A stretch of DNA of 64,000 bases from Spirochaetia bacterium (lineage in GTDB: Bacteria > Spirochaetota > Spirochaetia > CAKZLE01): positions 1,312,001 to 1,376,000 of the forward strand of contig OY782041.1 in assembly GCA_963677595.1 (NCBI GenBank), read 5' to 3'. Shown one piece after another: positions 6,015-13,587 of this stretch. The notes beneath the pieces were generated by a model. It made no database searches. It had not been told where the DNA came from and saw only the letters and a program-made list of their open reading frames with translations. Every line of letters starts with the position of its first letter. Positions within the stretch are counted from its first letter, which is position 1. A program made the translations under genes and the position numbers.

Positions 6015-7850
6015 CTACAGGTACCGCTGTCTCCTGCTGAGCAGCATGGCGTCCTTCAGCTCGGTGGCTGACCCTGCTGCCATCCATTTCTCAGGGAAAT
6101 CCTCCTCCCCTACCAGGGAGGCGATCGCGGCGATCGTCTTGAGGTGGAGGACCCTCGCATCCTTGCTGCCCCCGAGGAAGAAGACGGCCTTGACCGACGG
6201 ATTGTCAGGGTGGAAATCCACCCCTTCGGAACACCTCACCACATGCATGAACGCATCCTCATCCCCGTCGGTGATGATGTGCGGGATGGCCAGGAAGTCG
6301 GAGATCGCCGTGTTCATGGACTCATGACGCTCGGTATACCGCCTGATGACTTCACCCTCCTCCATCCCGATCTCTTTTGCGATGTCAGGCGCGACAGTCC
6401 TCAGCAGGCTGGAGAAGTCACTCTTCCCCTGTATATCATAGACCTTCGCGTCCCGGACGAGGCAGTCGAATCGGTCCTGCTGGATCTCGTCCCTCGTGAT
6501 GATGATGTCCCTGAGCTCGGTCTCGAGCAGGTCCTCGGTCAGCCGGGTGTCGGTGATCCGCTTGAGCAGGTGCAGCAGGGCGAAATCGCCGGTTCCCCGC
6601 TTCCTCCCATAGAAGAGGTAGAGACAGAGGCAGGCGAATATGAAGAGGAGGCTGATCTCGATCGCCTGTGCACCGAGGTCGATGATGAAGTAGCCGAAGA
6701 GGATGATGCTCGCTATCTGCAGCCAGGGGTAGAGCGGGGCTTTGAAGCTCGGCCGGTAGTTGGACAGGTTGCTCTCCCGCAGGATGATGATCGCCAGGTT
6801 CGTAAGGACATAGCTCGTCAGGATCACCGTCGAGGCTGCCTTGACCAGGACATCGAGCGGGAGCAGCAGAGCAAGGAAGATCATGACCGAGGTTATGGAG
6901 AGCGCGATGACCGGGGACTCCTTCTTCCGGCTCACGCGTGAGAAGAAGGGCGGCAGCAGGTGGTCCCTGCTGAGGGCGAGCGGATACCTGCTGGAGGACA
7001 TGAGCCCTGCATTAGCAGTCGTGATGAAGGCCAGCATCGAGGCGGCGATGATGACGCCGTACCCGATGTTTCCCATGAGGATCCTGGCTGAATCGGCTAC
7101 CGGGGTAAGGGAGCCTGCGAACTCCCCGGGAGGGAGGACCCCGGTCAGGACGATGACGATCAGCCCGTAGAAGAGGGTCACGATCCCGATGGAGAGGATC
7201 ATCCCGAGCGGAATGTTCCTCTTGGGGTTGATCACCTCCTCCGAGATGTTCGCGACCTTCAGCAGCCCCCCGAAGGAGATGAAGATGAACCCTGAGGTGA
7301 TGATGATCGAGTTCACCCCCTTCCCGAGGAAGTCATCGAAGTGGGAGGGTTCGATCCGCGGGATGCCGATAATGATATAGAGCAGGAGCAGCAGCAGAAG
7401 GCCTGCCACCATGATGATCTGGAAGGTCGTCGCCTCCTTCACACCCGCCACATTGATGACGAGGAAGAGGAGGCAGAGGATACCGGCCGAGAGGATCGGC
7501 GATATGCCGAAGAGCACGTAGATGATCTCCGAGATACCGAAGATGGCGAACGCGCTCTTCAGGGCCAGCGCGAACCAGCCGAGGAACCCTGAGATGGTCC
7601 CGAAGAGGGACCCGAATGTACGGTTAATGAAGTAGTAGTCGCCCCCGGCTTTCGGCATGGCAGTCGAGAGCTCGATGACGCTGAAGATCCCCATCAGGGC
7701 CAGCAGCCCGCCGAGGATGTAGGATATGAAGACTGCAGGCCCGGCTTTTGAGAATGCCAGGCCGGGCAGGACGAAGATACCGGAGCTGATCATAGCCCCG
7801 GTCGCGATACTGAATACTCCAGCAAGGTTTATGTTCTTCTTCAGACTCAC
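6015..7850 (-). CDS. APC-family amino acid permease fused to a C-terminal PTS EIIA domain
   Basis: About 12 TM segments with GAMISSGIFVLPG and ELSTAMPKAGGDY; soluble tail with AIPH. Confidence 0.85.
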   Translation of the reverse strand: MSLKKNINLAGVFSIATGAMISSGIFVLPGLAFSKAGPAVFISYILGGLLALMGIFSVIELSTAMPKAGGDYYFINRTFGSLFGTISGFLGWFALALKSAFAIFGISEIIYVLFGISPILSAGILCLLFLVINVAGVKEATTFQIIMVAGLLLLLLLYIIIGIPRIEPSHFDDFLGKGVNSIIITSGFIFISFGGLLKVANISEEVINPKRNIPLGMILSIGIVTLFYGLIVIVLTGVLPPGEFAGSLTPVADSARILMGNIGYGVIIAASMLAFITTANAGLMSSSRYPLALSRDHLLPPFFSRVSRKKESPVIALSITSVMIFLALLLPLDVLVKAASTVILTSYVLTNLAIIILRESNLSNYRPSFKAPLYPWLQIASIILFGYFIIDLGAQAIEISLLFIFACLCLYLFYGRKRGTGDFALLHLLKRITDTRLTEDLLETELRDIIITRDEIQQDRFDCLVRDAKVYDIQGKSDFSSLLRTVAPDIAKEIGMEEGEVIRRYTERHESMNTAISDFLAIPHIITDGDEDAFMHVVRCSEGVDFHPDNPSVKAVFFLGGSKDARVLHLKTIAAIASLVGEEDFPEKWMAAGSATELKDAMLLSRRQRYL

Positions 7851-7921: not shown

Positions 7922-8494
7922 TCATGTATCGAGAACAGCATGTGCCTGGTCTATCCCCGACACCGGAGCATGGGCATGCACCCTATCCTTCACCACGAGG
8001 TTCGTGACGTCCCCGGTGAAGTTCCGGTGGAAGAGGATGTCATGGCCGAGGCAGAGACCGATAGTCACGGCCAGGTCGACACCCTCGGCCTTCAGCTGGG
8101 CAGCCTGGTTGACCGGGTTGCAGGAGACGCCGGGCAGTTCGCTCTCCTTGTTGATATCTTTCTGGGCGACCCCACCGACCGTGCAGGATACCCCCGTGAC
8201 CGGGACTCCTGCAGCCTTGAAGAGCTTCAGGACCTTCCCGGCAAGAGGCTCCATGCCGTAGCAGTAGGCAAGCCCGACCTTCTTGTAGCCCATCGTCTTC
8301 GAGAACTCGATGAGCTCCTCGATCCGGGAGAGCTCGCCAGCCCTCCCGCCGTCGACGAGCTTCGCCGCATGCTGCACGACCTGCTGGTGCCCCTCCTCAT
8401 GGTAGATACCGGTATGGGTATCTATGTCGAAGGATTCGGCCCCGCAGGAGAGGGCACTCCTGCAGGATTTCCTCTTGCAGCTTATGCAGTTCAT
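7922..8494 (-). CDS. DUF1847 family Cys-rich metal-binding protein
   Basis: CxxC..C..C N-terminus, RIEELIEF, GLAYCYG, CNPVNQA, GLCLGHD, VVKDRV. Confidence 0.85.
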   Translation of the reverse strand: MNCISCKRKSCRSALSCGAESFDIDTHTGIYHEEGHQQVVQHAAKLVDGGRAGELSRIEELIEFSKTMGYKKVGLAYCYGMEPLAGKVLKLFKAAGVPVTGVSCTVGGVAQKDINKESELPGVSCNPVNQAAQLKAEGVDLAVTIGLCLGHDILFHRNFTGDVTNLVVKDRVHAHAPVSGIDQAHAVLDT

Positions 8495-9774
8495 TAGAGC
8501 TGCTTCGAGATGGTGATCGCAGCGATGGTACCGTCAGCGACTGCAGTCGTGATCTGCCGGTAGGCCTTCGACTTCACATCGCCGACCGCATAGACGCCGT
8601 CAAGGTTGGTCTTCATCTGGTCGTCAGCCGCGAGGTAGCCCCACTGGTCCAGCTCGAGGTTGTCGCCGAGGTCGTCGATGTTCGGGAGGAACCCGACGAA
8701 GACGAAGATACCAGTGGTCCGCAGTTCCTTGAGCTCGCCGCTCTTCAGGTCCTCGACCACGACGCCCATGTCCATGGTGCCGTACTTCTTGAACTCCCTC
8801 GGTTCATGCTCGAACATGATCTCGATCTTCGGGTTATCGAAGGCCTCCTTCTGGGCAGCCTTGTTGGCCTGGAGCTCGGCGAACTGGTGTACGATAGTCA
8901 CCTTCTTGGCGAACCTGGTGATGAACAGGGACTCCTCGATAGCGGAGTTACCGCCGCCGATCACGACGACTTCTTTGTCCTCGAAGTATTTCGCGTCACA
9001 GGTCGCACAGTAGGAGATACCGTTCCCCCGGTATTCCAACTCCCCGGGGATGCCGAGCGGTCTCGGCCGTGAACCGGTAGCGATGACGATGTGCTTTGCC
9101 TTGATGGTCTCGACCCCGTCGATGACGACCTGCTTCTTCTCAAGGTCGATATCGGTCACGTCGACTGCGACACGGTATTCCACCCCGTTCGCCTTTGCCT
9201 GCTCGCTCATGTAATGGGAGAGCATGAATCCCGGCTGGGGATCCACGAAGCCAGGGTAGTTCGATACCTGGTGGGTCGTCGATACATAGCCTCCCGGGAG
9301 TGCCGGGTCGACCAGGATGACCTTCGCATGTGCCTGGGCAAGGTAGATCCCTGCGGTAAGCCCTGCAGGTCCGCCGCCGAGGACGATGACGTCACGCTCG
9401 GTCTCGACCGGCTCGATCTTTGCCTTCACCTCTTCGACCTCTTCACTGGTAAGCAGTGCATCGAGGTTCTCCATGAGGGCACCACGCTTGATCCCGCCAG
9501 AGAGCTTGTCACCCACCTGCTTCCCCTTCTCATAGAAGAGGACGGTCGGTGAACCGGTCACGTCCAGTTCGGCGGCCAGTTCCCGGTTACCCTGCCGGAA
9601 GATCTTCACGAAGGAGATCTTCTCCCCGTAGAGGTAGCTCAATGCCTCGTATTTCGAAGCCAGTGCCTCACAGGGAGGGCACTCGGTCGAATAGAAATCC
9701 ACTACAACCCGTTCTTTCTGCAGCACCTCTGAATCGAATTCTGCTGCGGTTATCTCTTTGATCTTACCAGCCAT
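8494..9774 (-). CDS. Thioredoxin-thioredoxin reductase fusion
   Basis: N-terminal Trx domain (VVDFYSTECPPC), then TrxR with GGGPAG, CATCD, GGGNSA, GVYAVGD. Confidence 0.9.
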   Translation of the reverse strand: MAGKIKEITAAEFDSEVLQKERVVVDFYSTECPPCEALASKYEALSYLYGEKISFVKIFRQGNRELAAELDVTGSPTVLFYEKGKQVGDKLSGGIKRGALMENLDALLTSEEVEEVKAKIEPVETERDVIVLGGGPAGLTAGIYLAQAHAKVILVDPALPGGYVSTTHQVSNYPGFVDPQPGFMLSHYMSEQAKANGVEYRVAVDVTDIDLEKKQVVIDGVETIKAKHIVIATGSRPRPLGIPGELEYRGNGISYCATCDAKYFEDKEVVVIGGGNSAIEESLFITRFAKKVTIVHQFAELQANKAAQKEAFDNPKIEIMFEHEPREFKKYGTMDMGVVVEDLKSGELKELRTTGIFVFVGFLPNIDDLGDNLELDQWGYLAADDQMKTNLDGVYAVGDVKSKAYRQITTAVADGTIAAITISKQL

Positions 9775-9809
9775 GTTCTTTCTCCTACTAGCTTATAAAA
9801 TTAATTTCG

Positions 9810-11126
9810 TTATTCCTGTCCCAGCTGCTGGAAGTAGAGGGACAGCCCCATACCGATCAGCTGGTTCACCGGCCTGCAGTCTGCAGACTGGATACGTCCT
9901 GTACTGTTCTTCGCCACCGAACCGCAGCCGCCCCCGCAGGCTAACTGCATCGAGCAGTCCTTACATTCCGGGATCGTGGTGACATCACGCTCCTCCCACT
10001 GCTCGATTATCTCGTCCTTCCTCGTCACGGTCGGGTAGAATGTCCCGAGAACCTCATCATCCTTCCCGACGGTCGCCGTGCAGGAGTAGATCCTCCCGCT
10101 GTAGTCGAAGGCCCACTCCGTCTTGCAGGCAGGGCAGGAATCGAACAGCGGGTCAGGCATCTCGCCATGCTCGAAGAGGAACTTCGAGATCGAGTATGCA
10201 GGGGTATGGAATTCGAGGAATTCCGGGTTCTCCCTGATCATCGCATAGAGGTCCTCGTAGAGGCTGACCCGGTCATAGAGCTTGGACTGGTCGGACTGGC
10301 AGCTGTGAAGCTCATAGTTCCGCCCGAGCTGGGTCTTGAAGAGCGGGCTTGCGGCCCATCCCTTATCTATGGCAAGGTGTGCAAGTTCGATGAGGTGGGG
10401 GAAGTTCTCCCGGTCGACGACTGCCCGCAGGTTGACCGGCAGGCCGGCTGCCAGGGCTGCGTCGATCCCCTCGACGATCTCTGCGAAGGTACCTGACCCG
10501 CCGCGGAGCATCCTCCGCTTGTCATGGGCAGCTTCCGGCCCGTCGAGGGTCACCTGGAGTTCCTTGATGATCGCCGTCTTCAGGAGCGGTACATAACTCG
10601 TGAGGGTGTATCCGTTCGTGACGATCGCGATCCCGAGCTTCCTCTCCGTCGCCTTCTCCAAGAGGTACGCGATATTCTTCTTCGTCGCGTCATTGGGCAG
10701 GAGCGGCTCCCCGCCGAAGATCGTGATATACTTGTCCCTGCCGGCGAACTCCCGGTCGATGTAGTCGAAGAAGGCATCGATGACTTCCGGCTGGTAGTTC
10801 AGGTCCTGGTGGGTGTATTCCGCCTGGTAGCAGTAGGAGCAGGCGAAGTTGCAGGCATAGGTCGGTACATAGAAGATCTGCACCTCATCGGTATCGCGGT
10901 TGTCGATGAAATCGAGGTATTCGCTCCGGTAGAGCCTCTGCTCCTCTAAAGGGTCCACGAGATACCCCTTCTCGATGAGCTCCTCCTCGTTGAGGTACTC
11001 GCCCCTCTTGAAGGCCTCGGCATGCGCCGCCTCCATGATGTCCGCCTGCTTCGTCAGGGGATTTATGATGTAATACTCTTCAGAGTCCTTGAGCTGCCCG
11101 AAGAGCAGGTACTTAGATTTCTCCAT
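9810..11126 (-). CDS. Radical SAM/SPASM domain protein, putative peptide maturase
   Basis: CNFACSYC, FGGEPLL, C-terminal SPASM cysteines (CPAC..YSC..CKDCSMQLACGGGC..C) and an N-terminal extension of about 80 aa. Confidence 0.9.
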   Translation of the reverse strand: MEKSKYLLFGQLKDSEEYYIINPLTKQADIMEAAHAEAFKRGEYLNEEELIEKGYLVDPLEEQRLYRSEYLDFIDNRDTDEVQIFYVPTYACNFACSYCYQAEYTHQDLNYQPEVIDAFFDYIDREFAGRDKYITIFGGEPLLPNDATKKNIAYLLEKATERKLGIAIVTNGYTLTSYVPLLKTAIIKELQVTLDGPEAAHDKRRMLRGGSGTFAEIVEGIDAALAAGLPVNLRAVVDRENFPHLIELAHLAIDKGWAASPLFKTQLGRNYELHSCQSDQSKLYDRVSLYEDLYAMIRENPEFLEFHTPAYSISKFLFEHGEMPDPLFDSCPACKTEWAFDYSGRIYSCTATVGKDDEVLGTFYPTVTRKDEIIEQWEERDVTTIPECKDCSMQLACGGGCGSVAKNSTGRIQSADCRPVNQLIGMGLSLYFQQLGQE

Positions 11127-11153
11127 GAATGTCTGTCCTTATTCTATAGGAAT

Positions 11154-11183
11154 GCAGGCAGCCTGCAGCTGCAGGCTGCCTGC
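11154..11183. repeat. Perfect 30-bp palindrome between the peptide gene and the rSAM gene
   Basis: GCAGGCAGCCTGCAGCTGCAGGCTGCCTGC equals its own reverse complement. Confidence 0.9.
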
Positions 11184-11190
11184 CGGATAA

Positions 11191-11286
11191 CTAGTCGTGG
11201 CAGCCTGCGACGACTTTCGAGTTCTTAGCACAGCACTGTGCAACAGCTTTCTGTTCAGCAGGCCGTTTCTTGAGAAGTGATTTCAT
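11191..11286 (-). CDS. 31-aa Cys-containing peptide, putative RiPP precursor (MKSLLKKRPAEQKAVAQCCAKNSKVVAGCHD)
   Basis: Manual translation, ATG at 11286 to TAG at 11191; strong SD AGGAGG just upstream; directly upstream of the rSAM/SPASM gene on the same strand. Confidence 0.8.
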   Translation of the reverse strand: MKSLLKKRPAEQKAVAQCCAKNSKVVAGCHD

Positions 11287-11332
11287 TGCTTTCCTCCTGT
11301 CCACTAAGATTTCTCTTTATACTCATCCGGGG

Positions 11333-11968
11333 TCATTTGACCCCGAGGATGGTCCAACTCGCTACCTCGATCGCGCCCTTCGGATAGGGATCGCTCTCCT
11401 CGAGGATCTGTACTTCAGAGAACCCTGCCTTCAGCAGCTGCTCACTGTATACGTCCCTGGTCACCGACCCGGCCCAGCATTCCGCGACAGCCGCGGGATC
11501 GTTCCGGTACTCATCGGGCACCGGCTGCAGGGAGTAGATGTCGCTAACGGTGAACCGCCCGCCGGGTTTGAGTACCCGGTAGACCTCGTTCCAGACGTTC
11601 TGCTTGTCTGATGCATGGTTGATCGTGCAGTTCGAGATGAGCAAGTCAACGGTATCGGACTCGAGCGGGAGCTTCTCCAGGTCGGATTTGAGGAAGTCAA
11701 CATTCCCGACCCCAAGCCGTTCAGCCTGCCGTGCAGCCTTTGCCAGCATGCCGTCCGAGATATCGATCCCGTAGACGAACCCGTCTGTACCCACCTCGTC
11801 GGCAAGTCGCAGGACATCGGTCCCCCGACCGCTGCCGAGGTCGACGCAGGTCTCGCCTGTCTGTGCATTGCTGTGGTTGATCGCCCCGCCGCATGAGAGG
11901 CAGCAGCTCGTCTCCGCAAGTTCTGAATACCGGATGTTTATTGCAGTATTCGCCTGTGTGTTCACCAT
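11333..11968 (-). CDS. ArsM-like SAM-dependent methyltransferase
   Basis: SCCLSCGG, DLGSGRGTD, SNCTINH, VLKPGG, AECWAG; the Cys pattern resembles arsenite methyltransferases. Confidence 0.8.
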   Translation of the reverse strand: MVNTQANTAINIRYSELAETSCCLSCGGAINHSNAQTGETCVDLGSGRGTDVLRLADEVGTDGFVYGIDISDGMLAKAARQAERLGVGNVDFLKSDLEKLPLESDTVDLLISNCTINHASDKQNVWNEVYRVLKPGGRFTVSDIYSLQPVPDEYRNDPAAVAECWAGSVTRDVYSEQLLKAGFSEVQILEESDPYPKGAIEVASWTILGVK

Positions 11969-11980
11969 ACTATACGTCTC

Positions 11981-12382
11981 CTACATGACTCTCAGGAGAA
12001 GGGACAGCCCCTCCCTGATCTTGTTCTGTTCTTCAGGGGTAAGCCCCTCGCTCAGCCTCCGGTCGCAGGCATCCTTCTCGTTCTGCAGGTCGGTAAAGCA
12101 CTGCTGCCCGGCACCGGTCAGGGAGAGCTTGACCGCCCTGCGGTCATTCCTGTTCGGCACGACGGTAAGCAGACCCCGTTCCCGCAGGCTGTTGACGACC
12201 CTGCTGCCCCTCGAGATCGAGAGACTCATGGCTTCAGCGATCTCCTTGAGGGAGGCCCCGCCATGGGAGGCGATCATCCAGATGCAGCTCACCTCACCGG
12301 GGGTGAGGTTGTGGATCCTGCCGATCTCCTCCACGAAGGTACATTTGTTCTTCAATTCTAAAATCGTATCTATCATCACCAT
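11981..12382 (-). CDS. MarR family transcriptional regulator
   Basis: wHTH with SRVVNSLRERGLL and DRRAVKLSLT; four Cys. Confidence 0.9.
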   Translation of the reverse strand: MVMIDTILELKNKCTFVEEIGRIHNLTPGEVSCIWMIASHGGASLKEIAEAMSLSISRGSRVVNSLRERGLLTVVPNRNDRRAVKLSLTGAGQQCFTDLQNEKDACDRRLSEGLTPEEQNKIREGLSLLLRVM

Positions 12383-12392
12383 TTCTCTTTAA

Positions 12393-12448
12393 TTGCTATT
12401 AGCAACTATTGCTTATGGCAATATACTATTTCCTTATCGATATGTCAA
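12393..12448 (-). promoter_or_regulatory. Sigma70 promoter and probable MarR operator of the marR operon
   Basis: Minus-strand TTGACA (12448-12443), 17 bp, TATATT (12425-12420). Palindromes TTGCTATTAGCAA (12393-12405) and TATTGC-N5-GCAATA (12407-12423) overlap the -10/TSS region. Confidence 0.7.
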
Positions 12449-12522: not shown

Positions 12523-13587
12523 ATGAATCGTTCACCGGTGCTCAAGAACCTCTATCGATCAGCAGAAGTCATCCCATTCGACACGGAAGCGAAGTATGTC
12601 ATCTTCAGCGACCTCCATATGGGTAACGGCAGCCGGACTGACGACTTCAGGAAGAACAGTGAGCTGTGCCGGAAGGTGCTGGAGGATTTCTACCTTCCCG
12701 CAGGCTATACCCTCATCCTCAATGGCGATATAGAGGAACTGCAGAAGTTCCGTTACCTGAGCATCAGGTCCTGCTGGGAGGATATCTTCAGGGTCTTCGA
12801 CAGCTTCCACTCACGGGGGAAGCTGATCAAGATCGCGGGCAACCATGATGCCCTGCTCCGGGAGAACCCTCCAGAGGGCTATCCCTACCCGGTGTATGAG
12901 GCGATACGGCTGGAGGCTGAGGGGCATCTCCCGATCTTCATCACCCACGGACACCATGCGTCTCCGGTATTCAGGTGGTGCAACGGGCTCATCAAGTACG
13001 GTCTCCGGTATATCTCGAACCCGATCGGGATCAAGAACTACTCCGTCTCCCAGAGGAATGCGAGGAAACGCAGGATAGAGTCGAGGATCTACTCGTTCGC
13101 AAAACGCCAGAAGATCCTGGCGATCATCGGCCATACACACCGGCCGCTCTTCGAGTCGGTGACCAGGACTGACTCGATCAAGTGGGTCATCGAGCGATCC
13201 CTCCGGTCGATCCGCTACTCCGATTCCGGGGAGCGAGAGAAGATCTCCAGGCAGATCACCAAACTCATCGGGGACTACAAACTCGCACGCGGTTCACGGG
13301 CTGTCGAGCCGCTGAGCAGCATCTACAGCTCGGAGATACCCGTGCCCTGCCTCTTCAACTCGGGATGCGCCATCGGGAAGCGGGGCATCACCGGGATCGA
13401 GATCGTCAGGGACACCATCTCCCTGATCCACTGGTCCGATCACCGGATCAACGAGACCTACCTGACCGGCGGGTATGAGGGGAGGACACTCTCCTCGATA
13501 GCCCCACACCTCCACAAGGTGGTGCTCAGGAAGGATGATCTCCCTTATATCATGAACTCGATCAGGGTTCTCGGGGAGATCATCTGA
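12523..13587 (+). CDS. Metallophosphoesterase (calcineurin-like)
   Basis: SDLHMG, NGD, GNHD, HGH, GHTH motifs. Confidence 0.85.
   Translation: MNRSPVLKNLYRSAEVIPFDTEAKYVIFSDLHMGNGSRTDDFRKNSELCRKVLEDFYLPAGYTLILNGDIEELQKFRYLSIRSCWEDIFRVFDSFHSRGKLIKIAGNHDALLRENPPEGYPYPVYEAIRLEAEGHLPIFITHGHHASPVFRWCNGLIKYGLRYISNPIGIKNYSVSQRNARKRRIESRIYSFAKRQKILAIIGHTHRPLFESVTRTDSIKWVIERSLRSIRYSDSGEREKISRQITKLIGDYKLARGSRAVEPLSSIYSSEIPVPCLFNSGCAIGKRGITGIEIVRDTISLIHWSDHRINETYLTGGYEGRTLSSIAPHLHKVVLRKDDLPYIMNSIRVLGEII

Follow-up and report, generated by a model that had tools for sequence, protein, structure and literature searches.

We analysed a 64,000-nucleotide (nt) stretch of DNA from a Spirochaetia bacterium (GenBank assembly GCA_963677595.1, contig OY782041.1, positions 1,312,001 to 1,376,000; hereafter the window), which carries on its minus strand a compact gene cassette combining an ArsM-like methyltransferase, a small Cys-containing peptide and a radical S-adenosylmethionine (SAM) enzyme. 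Six co-oriented open reading frames (ORFs), separated by intergenic gaps of 12, 46, 64, 35 and -1 nt, are found here. In order of transcription, they encode a MarR-family repressor of 133 amino acids (aa) (11981..12382; PF12802 and PF01047 above cut-off), a short ArsM-like SAM methyltransferase of 211 aa (11333..11968), a precursor-like peptide of 31 aa, MKSLLKKRPAEQKAVAQCCAKNSKVVAGCHD, preceded by a strong ribosome-binding site, AGGAGG (11191..11286), a radical SAM (rSAM)/SPASM enzyme of 438 aa (9810..11126), a 426-aa fusion of thioredoxin (CPPC) with thioredoxin reductase (CATC), termed Trx-TrxR (8494..9774), and a Cys-rich, putatively metal-binding DUF1847 protein of 190 aa (7922..8494; PF08901, 112 bits). 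A perfect stem-loop (11154..11183) lies directly 3' of the peptide stop codon. Upstream of marR we located a sigma-70-type promoter, TTGACA-17-TATATT (12420..12448), which matches the consensus at 11 of 12 positions, directly followed by two tandem 13-bp palindromic boxes, TTGC-N5-GCAA, predicted to be MarR operators (12393..12421). The boxes occupy positions 12393-12405 and 12409-12421, their starts lying 16 nt apart, and the first overlaps the end of the -10 hexamer. A promoter consensus match by itself is near chance (3 found versus 2.0 expected), but the same layout of promoter and operators recurs upstream of marR in relatives. A preliminary description of this DNA had reported six tightly co-oriented genes behind one consensus promoter with palindromic operators, and both the gene arrangement and the control region are borne out. 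Its statement that every product is rich in Cys fits five of them (2.7-9.7% Cys, against a genome background of 1.12%) but not Trx-TrxR, whose 4 Cys in 426 aa (0.9%) put it below background.

Around homologues of the rSAM enzyme we collected 127 loci, of which 120 were left after removal of duplicates. These are the best-scoring matches, kin included, and are hence not independent; for each gene, only loci with enough flanking sequence were counted. The methyltransferase, the peptide, the rSAM/SPASM enzyme and the Trx-TrxR fusion occur together in 64 of 68 non-redundant loci. Taken singly, the methyltransferase gene lies upstream of the rSAM gene in 85/89 loci, the peptide gene lies no more than 400 nt upstream of it in 104/109, and the fusion is present in 79/82. 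As marR is found directly upstream in 25/89 loci and DUF1847 in 10/58, both are accessories, and the conserved core consists of the other four genes. The preliminary description had treated all six genes as one system; synteny upholds this for the core and not for MarR and DUF1847.

The closest related loci belong to Spirochaetota, and Marispirochaeta aestuarii and Spirochaeta isovalerica are among the cultured species named for homologues. In an even draw of 401 genomes from this phylum, the rSAM enzyme was present in 44, and the short methyltransferase in 43 of those 44; in the single genome without it, the locus runs into a contig edge. The short methyltransferase was also seen without the rSAM gene in L162 (where a contig ends), in L164 (a broken remnant) and in L163 (a second copy). 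In L164 (4749-5506), marR is followed by a broken fragment of the methyltransferase gene, with no peptide or rSAM gene in 11 kb, and this locus is a decayed cassette. The L163 gene (3082-4341, minus strand) is a second copy in genome G115, with no peptide on its 5.6-kb contig; the genes after it are presumably thioredoxin-like and GroES-like, with what we take to be cas1/cas2-like genes nearby. Evidence from outside the spirochaetes is thin, consisting of one Bacteroidales-named methyltransferase, 76% identical to that of L052, and one Firestonebacteria-named, distant rSAM protein with no genomic context. No close plasmid copy of the cassette rSAM gene was found (5 matches at 28%).

The multiple alignment of the peptide gene showed a core, AQCCxKx(S/T)xxxxGCHD, in which A, C, C, K, G, C, H and D are unchanged in 110/110 distinct DNA sequences, while the third codon positions of these invariant residues vary by 13-60%; Ser23 is kept in 107/110. 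This pattern points to purifying selection on the core. The peptide consists of a short leader of the MKSL(I/V) type, a spacer whose length varies and a C-terminal 16-mer that is invariant, and such a leader/spacer/core layout is expected of precursors of RiPPs (peptides that ribosomes synthesize and that are modified post-translationally). Judged from its sequence, the 31-aa ORF is a real gene with RiPP-precursor anatomy, in agreement with the preliminary description, which had singled out the tiny peptide on these lines. It is present in single copy in the genome, has no Pfam match, and all of its Atlas matches lie below 0.9. Read-through of the peptide stop codon as selenocysteine was considered and rejected, because all three stop codons are used (TAA 62, TGA 33 and TAG 15). 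The stem-loop that follows the gene is strong (z -4.1); a z of -2 or below was obtained for 56/83 loci in which the gap behind the peptide gene is at least 40 nt, compared with 1/27 of those with a shorter gap. It likely raises the level of peptide mRNA over that of the downstream genes.

The peptide is very probably the substrate of the rSAM enzyme encoded next to it. All 118 rSAM sequences keep the CxxxCxxC motif (Cys92/96/99) and the seven SPASM Cys (331, 349, 388, 391, 397, 401 and 417); two extra Cys are found in most of them (Cys276 in 112/118, Cys334 in 101/118), and the enzyme carries the motif FKTQ(L/I)GRNYEL. Although no Pfam SPASM model matches the protein, the assignment holds on account of its SPASM Cys pattern and its fold match to CteB; the domain labels of the preliminary description hold. 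CteB is the closest solved relative both by profile (E 4e-19) and by fold (whole-chain template-modelling score 0.66, for a model with a predicted local distance difference test (pLDDT) value of 82). Residues 1-80 are modelled as three strands and three helices, resembling a RiPP recognition element (RRE). According to the available part of PMC8172795, CteB itself carries an RRE domain, and one of its auxiliary clusters (AuxI) has an open site at which a substrate Cys binds; in its substrate SCIFF, the thioether link joins Cys32 to Thr37. When Cys residues are assigned to clusters through the CteB alignment, the seven invariant Cys with a variable eighth would be consistent with such an open site for a substrate Cys. 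By analogy, the cassette enzyme is likely a thioether-forming peptide maturase.

In a midpoint-rooted tree of 91 sequences, made up of 22 cassette enzymes and the best-scoring near-full-length representatives, the cassette rSAMs fall in one clade (support 0.988). This clade also includes two separate rSAM-DUF5714 fusions (P0141 and P0145), and the Cys-rich DUF5714 is a free neighbour in 4/128 loci, in a divergent branch (L139-L142); being fused in two branches and free in another, it may be an older cassette member. Another protein, P0170 (792 aa), joins a related SPASM rSAM enzyme to a full-length ArsM that retains all catalytic Cys; this fusion was dropped as a family member, as it falls outside the cassette clade under midpoint rooting. 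Among proteins of 843-2405 aa we found no longer forms of the cassette rSAM, which is weak evidence.

The likeness of the short methyltransferase to ArsM, already noted in the preliminary description, was confirmed. In alignments with 4kw7 and 4fr0, its Cys26, Cys114 and Cys164 correspond to Cys72, Cys174 and Cys224 of CmArsM, and they are kept in 93/93, 93/93 and 92/93 sequences, respectively; this catalytic trio is retained even at 33-40% identity. ArsM structures come top both by sequence and by fold, the best fold match being 4fr0 (Z 24.4, root-mean-square deviation 2.3, 192 residues aligned), with the next non-ArsM structure at Z 21.4, and the model (pLDDT 94.6) predicts a SAM methyltransferase fold of class I, with ArsM as the nearest match. 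In ArsM, according to the portion of PMC6138428 available, the last two Cys bind the metalloid and a disulfide is formed by the N-terminal pair; the enzyme prefers As(GS)3 as its substrate, and thioredoxin has been suggested as the reductant. Compared with bacterial ArsM, the cassette enzyme is shorter by about 50 residues (211 aa, as against 260-380 for ArsM), lacking some 35 residues before the Cys72 motif as well as the C-terminal domain of CmArsM. A Cys22-Cys23 pair, considered as a possible counterpart of ArsM Cys44, lies only 3-4 residues before Cys26; it is present in 80/93 sequences and gone in some lineages. With L157 left out of the comparison, an extra Cys pair in the peptide leader accompanies 8 of 10 distinct enzyme-peptide pairs without Cys22-Cys23, versus 5 of 77 otherwise. 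In L139 and L133, for example, an enzyme devoid of the pair goes with a peptide of four or five Cys. As a separate observation, an in-frame TGA occupies the position of the third catalytic Cys in an ArsM-like gene of L166 (4860-5636, minus strand) and of genomes G042, G065, G085 and G215; selenoprotein ArsM is a known kind, as stated in the accessible text of PMC13188914.

Both catalytic motifs of the Trx-TrxR fusion, CPPC and CATC, keep their Cys in 89-90 of 90 sequences. As the genome encodes two other TrxR-like genes, the fusion is an extra copy and looks dedicated to the cassette, as the preliminary description had supposed. Neither GshA nor GshB was found in the genome, which is a single contig and 95% complete. 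In the accessory MarR, only Cys14 (30/30) and Cys106 (29/30) are conserved, and we presume that it is more akin to oxidant sensors with two Cys, OhrR for example. A perfect TTGC-N5-GCAA box was present upstream in 23 of 35 rows of the marR cluster, which include the window and several near-duplicates (the L046 row was not counted as a match), and no second tandem pair occurs among the box matches in the genome. A single operator-like box, at G000:C1:1522434, lies some 170 nt upstream of a metal transporter gene, which we take to be ZupT-like; from its sequence, this box is possibly a second MarR target. The accessory DUF1847 protein has 8 Cys, kept in 17-18 of 18 sequences, and no relative of it was found in the PDB by sequence.

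Whether the methyltransferase acts on arsenic was assessed from the genomic context as well as from the enzyme itself. The genes for Acr3, ArsC or canonical ArsM were found within the locus in 1/128 cases, about the level expected by chance, and those of the genome under study lie about 90 kb to 1.3 Mb from the cassette. As acr3 or arsC adjoins canonical arsM in only 1/20 control loci of the same phylum, the rarity of ars neighbours is a weak negative. The one ars-adjacent locus, L165 (G057:C75, 174-13729), has the four core genes in rearranged order abutting an arsR-arsP-trx-ccdA-arsR-arsM-acr3-arsC island, the peptide gene being transcribed divergently behind an ArsR/SmtB-type gene; its Acr3 scores 437 bits against a cut-off of 283. 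Recurrent neighbours are of the sulfur or redox type (YgaP in 20 loci, DUF302 in 12, OsmC in 10 and YeeE/YedE in 3), and they come mostly from related metagenomic loci that are not independent. In this survey, 47 of 107 neighbour-cluster representatives were scanned, and among those examined that recur in several loci there was no transporter, protease or immunity gene. It is with the loci devoid of marR that the YgaP-like, DUF302 and OsmC genes are found, together with an extra thioredoxin (42), a small membrane protein (33), NifX-like (16) and DUF134 (11) genes, and sometimes YeeE/YedE and a rhodanese, as in the metagenomic examples L051, L063, L077 and L098.

Several of these results weigh against a role in arsenic methylation, namely the scarcity and distance of ars genes, the sulfur-type neighbours and the presence of a canonical ArsM elsewhere in the same genome. 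To them must be added that the methyltransferase scores 194.6 bits against the NF008823 ArsM cut-off of 263, that it groups apart from 22 canonical ArsMs in a tree whose root is unreliable, and that its family-specific SNCxxNH motif has an invariant His after Cys114 that is not found in canonical ArsM (SNCVINL). The exchange of Cys pairs between enzyme and peptide also loses force on the tree, where it amounts to about five losses, of which three come with the leader pair and two do not; with so few losses, we take it as a hint of peptide Cys replacing enzyme Cys. Likewise, MarRars, which resembles the cassette regulator as a Cys-bearing MarR heading a thiol- or metalloid-type operon, needs Cys36, Cys37 and Cys157 (bioRxiv 10.1101/2021.08.12.456183, in the part available), a triad absent from the cassette MarR. 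With ars neighbours in 1/128 loci and a regulator of this kind, the arsenic link drawn in the preliminary description is not supported as stated. Arsenic nevertheless is plausible as the substrate of the methyltransferase, on account of the Cys set shared with ArsM, of the thioredoxin system that looks dedicated to the cassette, and of L165.

Compared with known systems, the cassette resembles SCIFF/CteA-CteB (5wgg, 5why; TIGR03974) in combining an RRE-like N-terminus, an rSAM core, a seven-Cys SPASM region and an adjacent conserved Cys peptide; the ranthipeptide maturases PapB (NF047865) and CefB (NF038107) were grouped with CteB in this comparison. It differs in that identity to CteB in the fold alignment is 17-18%, the TIGR03974 score is 88/425 bits, the three-Cys peptide is unrelated, and the methyltransferase and Trx-TrxR are near-obligate partners. 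With ArsM/AS3MT (CmArsM 4fr0, CrArsM 5evj; NF008823), the methyltransferase shares the fold and the equivalents of Cys72/174/224, yet it is tied to a peptide and an rSAM enzyme. The pairing of an rSAM with an ArsM-type enzyme also recalls the arsinothricin (ArsL-ArsM-ArsQ) and arsenosugar (ArsS-ArsM) clusters. These are without a precursor peptide and, unlike them, the cassette is not part of an ars operon; as described in the portion of PMC8552651 available, ArsL lies in an ars operon and has only three conserved Cys, whereas the cassette rSAM has a SPASM region with seven further invariant Cys. Judged by sequence, the cassette would work in the manner of CteB-type maturase systems and of ArsM while fitting neither family as defined. 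In NCBIfam, no model scores above its cut-off for the peptide, the rSAM enzyme (best score 131 versus 600, with three homologues far below too) or the methyltransferase, in line with the earlier view that this combination is unnamed.

As a tentative reading that we prefer without holding it assured, an intracellular, thioether-modified thiol peptide partners a metalloid methyltransferase, is recycled by Trx-TrxR and is switched on by a two-Cys MarR. The MKSL(I/V) leader would bind the N-terminal domain of the rSAM enzyme, which would then cross-link the peptide by a thioether through one Cys; Cys18 to Ser23 is one candidate, put forward by spacing alone, since i to i+5 is also the spacing of Cys32-Thr37 in SCIFF. 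The other peptide Cys may hold the metalloid or act as electron donors, the roles that glutathione and Cys44 have for ArsM. Once matured, the peptide would be the intracellular thiol partner to the short ArsM-like enzyme, whose predicted reaction is the methylation of a thiol-loving metalloid, with trivalent arsenic as the most likely one. Disulfides would be re-reduced by the Trx-TrxR fusion, and the two-Cys MarR would leave its operators on thiol oxidation or metalloid binding. We regard as doubtful a bolder proposal, in which the rSAM/SPASM enzyme and the short ArsM would build either a peptide with a carbon-arsenic (C-As) bond or a peptide-derived metalloid carrier replacing glutathione, widespread in anaerobes.

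The cassette may also be read without any metalloid, the methyltransferase acting on sulfur or selenium (peptide Cys, sulfide or persulfide, or selenide) and the rSAM-modified peptide being an intracellular redox or sulfur cofactor recycled by Trx-TrxR. The sulfur-trafficking and redox neighbours, the two-Cys MarR, the rarity of ars genes nearby and the separate lineage of the methyltransferase with its own His all agree with this explanation, and an invariant peptide core suits a cofactor. It accounts less readily for an enzyme that keeps all three ArsM catalytic Cys even at 33-40% identity and finds its best matches among ArsM structures, and the kinship of the metagenomic loci lessens the weight of the neighbours; we consider it possible, but on the unlikely side. 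Quite unlikely, in our view, is an arsenic-containing RiPP, in which the peptide Cys would bind As(III), the methyltransferase would methylate it and the rSAM enzyme would form a C-As bond to the peptide, in the way that ArsL and ArsS act on small molecules. Pairs of rSAM enzyme and ArsM do form C-As bonds (available portions of PMC8552651 and PMC12159101), the peptide has three invariant Cys, Cys276 and Cys334 come in addition to the CteB-type set, and P0170 joins a related SPASM enzyme to a full ArsM. P0170, however, lies outside the cassette clade, and ArsL, with its three conserved Cys, probably has one cluster (PMC8552651, in the part available), unlike the cassette rSAM; the ars context is weak, and no conserved exporter or protease appeared among the recurrent neighbours examined.

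Two further explanations were weighed. If the peptide were an unmodified metalloid chaperone, the rSAM enzyme having the methyltransferase, a small molecule or something else as its target, one could understand why the peptide gene stands away from the rSAM gene in L051 and L144 and was not seen in L050, L063 and L113. Its place directly upstream of the rSAM gene in nearly all loci, the conserved leader motif and the CteB-like N-terminal domain of the enzyme nevertheless make this improbable, more so than the arsenic-containing RiPP. An ordinary secreted antimicrobial or signalling ranthipeptide, for which the methyltransferase would be a tailoring enzyme, is very improbable: one would look for a recurrent transporter, protease or immunity gene, which the clusters found in several loci do not hold, and for a diversifying core, while the core is invariant, the genome has one peptide copy and a cytoplasmic Trx-TrxR is a core member. 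Such peptides are the products of most characterised thioether-forming rSAM/SPASM enzymes (PMC8172795, in the part available), and precursor-rich operons typically have a stem-loop behind the peptide gene, which is what this explanation has on its side.

The four-gene system delineated here is compact, has hardly changed among many anaerobes and bears no family name. No description of it was found in the open literature; subscription journals lay outside the scope of the search, so prior publication is possible, and the available portions of PMC10352776, PMC13728944, PMC10114670 and PMC12608789 contain nothing on the cassette. If the metalloid link of the preferred reading is true, this would be, in the open literature covered, the first tie of ribosomal-peptide maturation to arsenic methylation, and the peptide would be a glutathione substitute for anaerobic methylators. 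Were the proposal of a C-As peptide or metalloid carrier true, the methyltransferase would be a source of methylarsenic that has been overlooked in anoxic sediments. Of the 120 homologues listed for the short methyltransferase, about 23 bear the automatic name "arsenite methyltransferase", and in 34/44 cassette genomes no second ArsM-like match was found with the short methyltransferase as query; whatever the substrate, counts of arsM in metagenomes from anoxic settings may therefore take in an enzyme for which arsenic is a predicted substrate.

The cassette region is without an Rfam match. Downstream, 71 nt after DUF1847 and on the same strand, the window encodes an APC permease fused to an EIIA domain of the phosphotransferase system (6015-7850); no terminator was found between the two genes, and the permease gene is not a conserved cassette neighbour. 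On the other side, a metallophosphoesterase-family gene (12523-13587, plus strand) is transcribed divergently and has its upstream intergenic region in common with the marR promoter.

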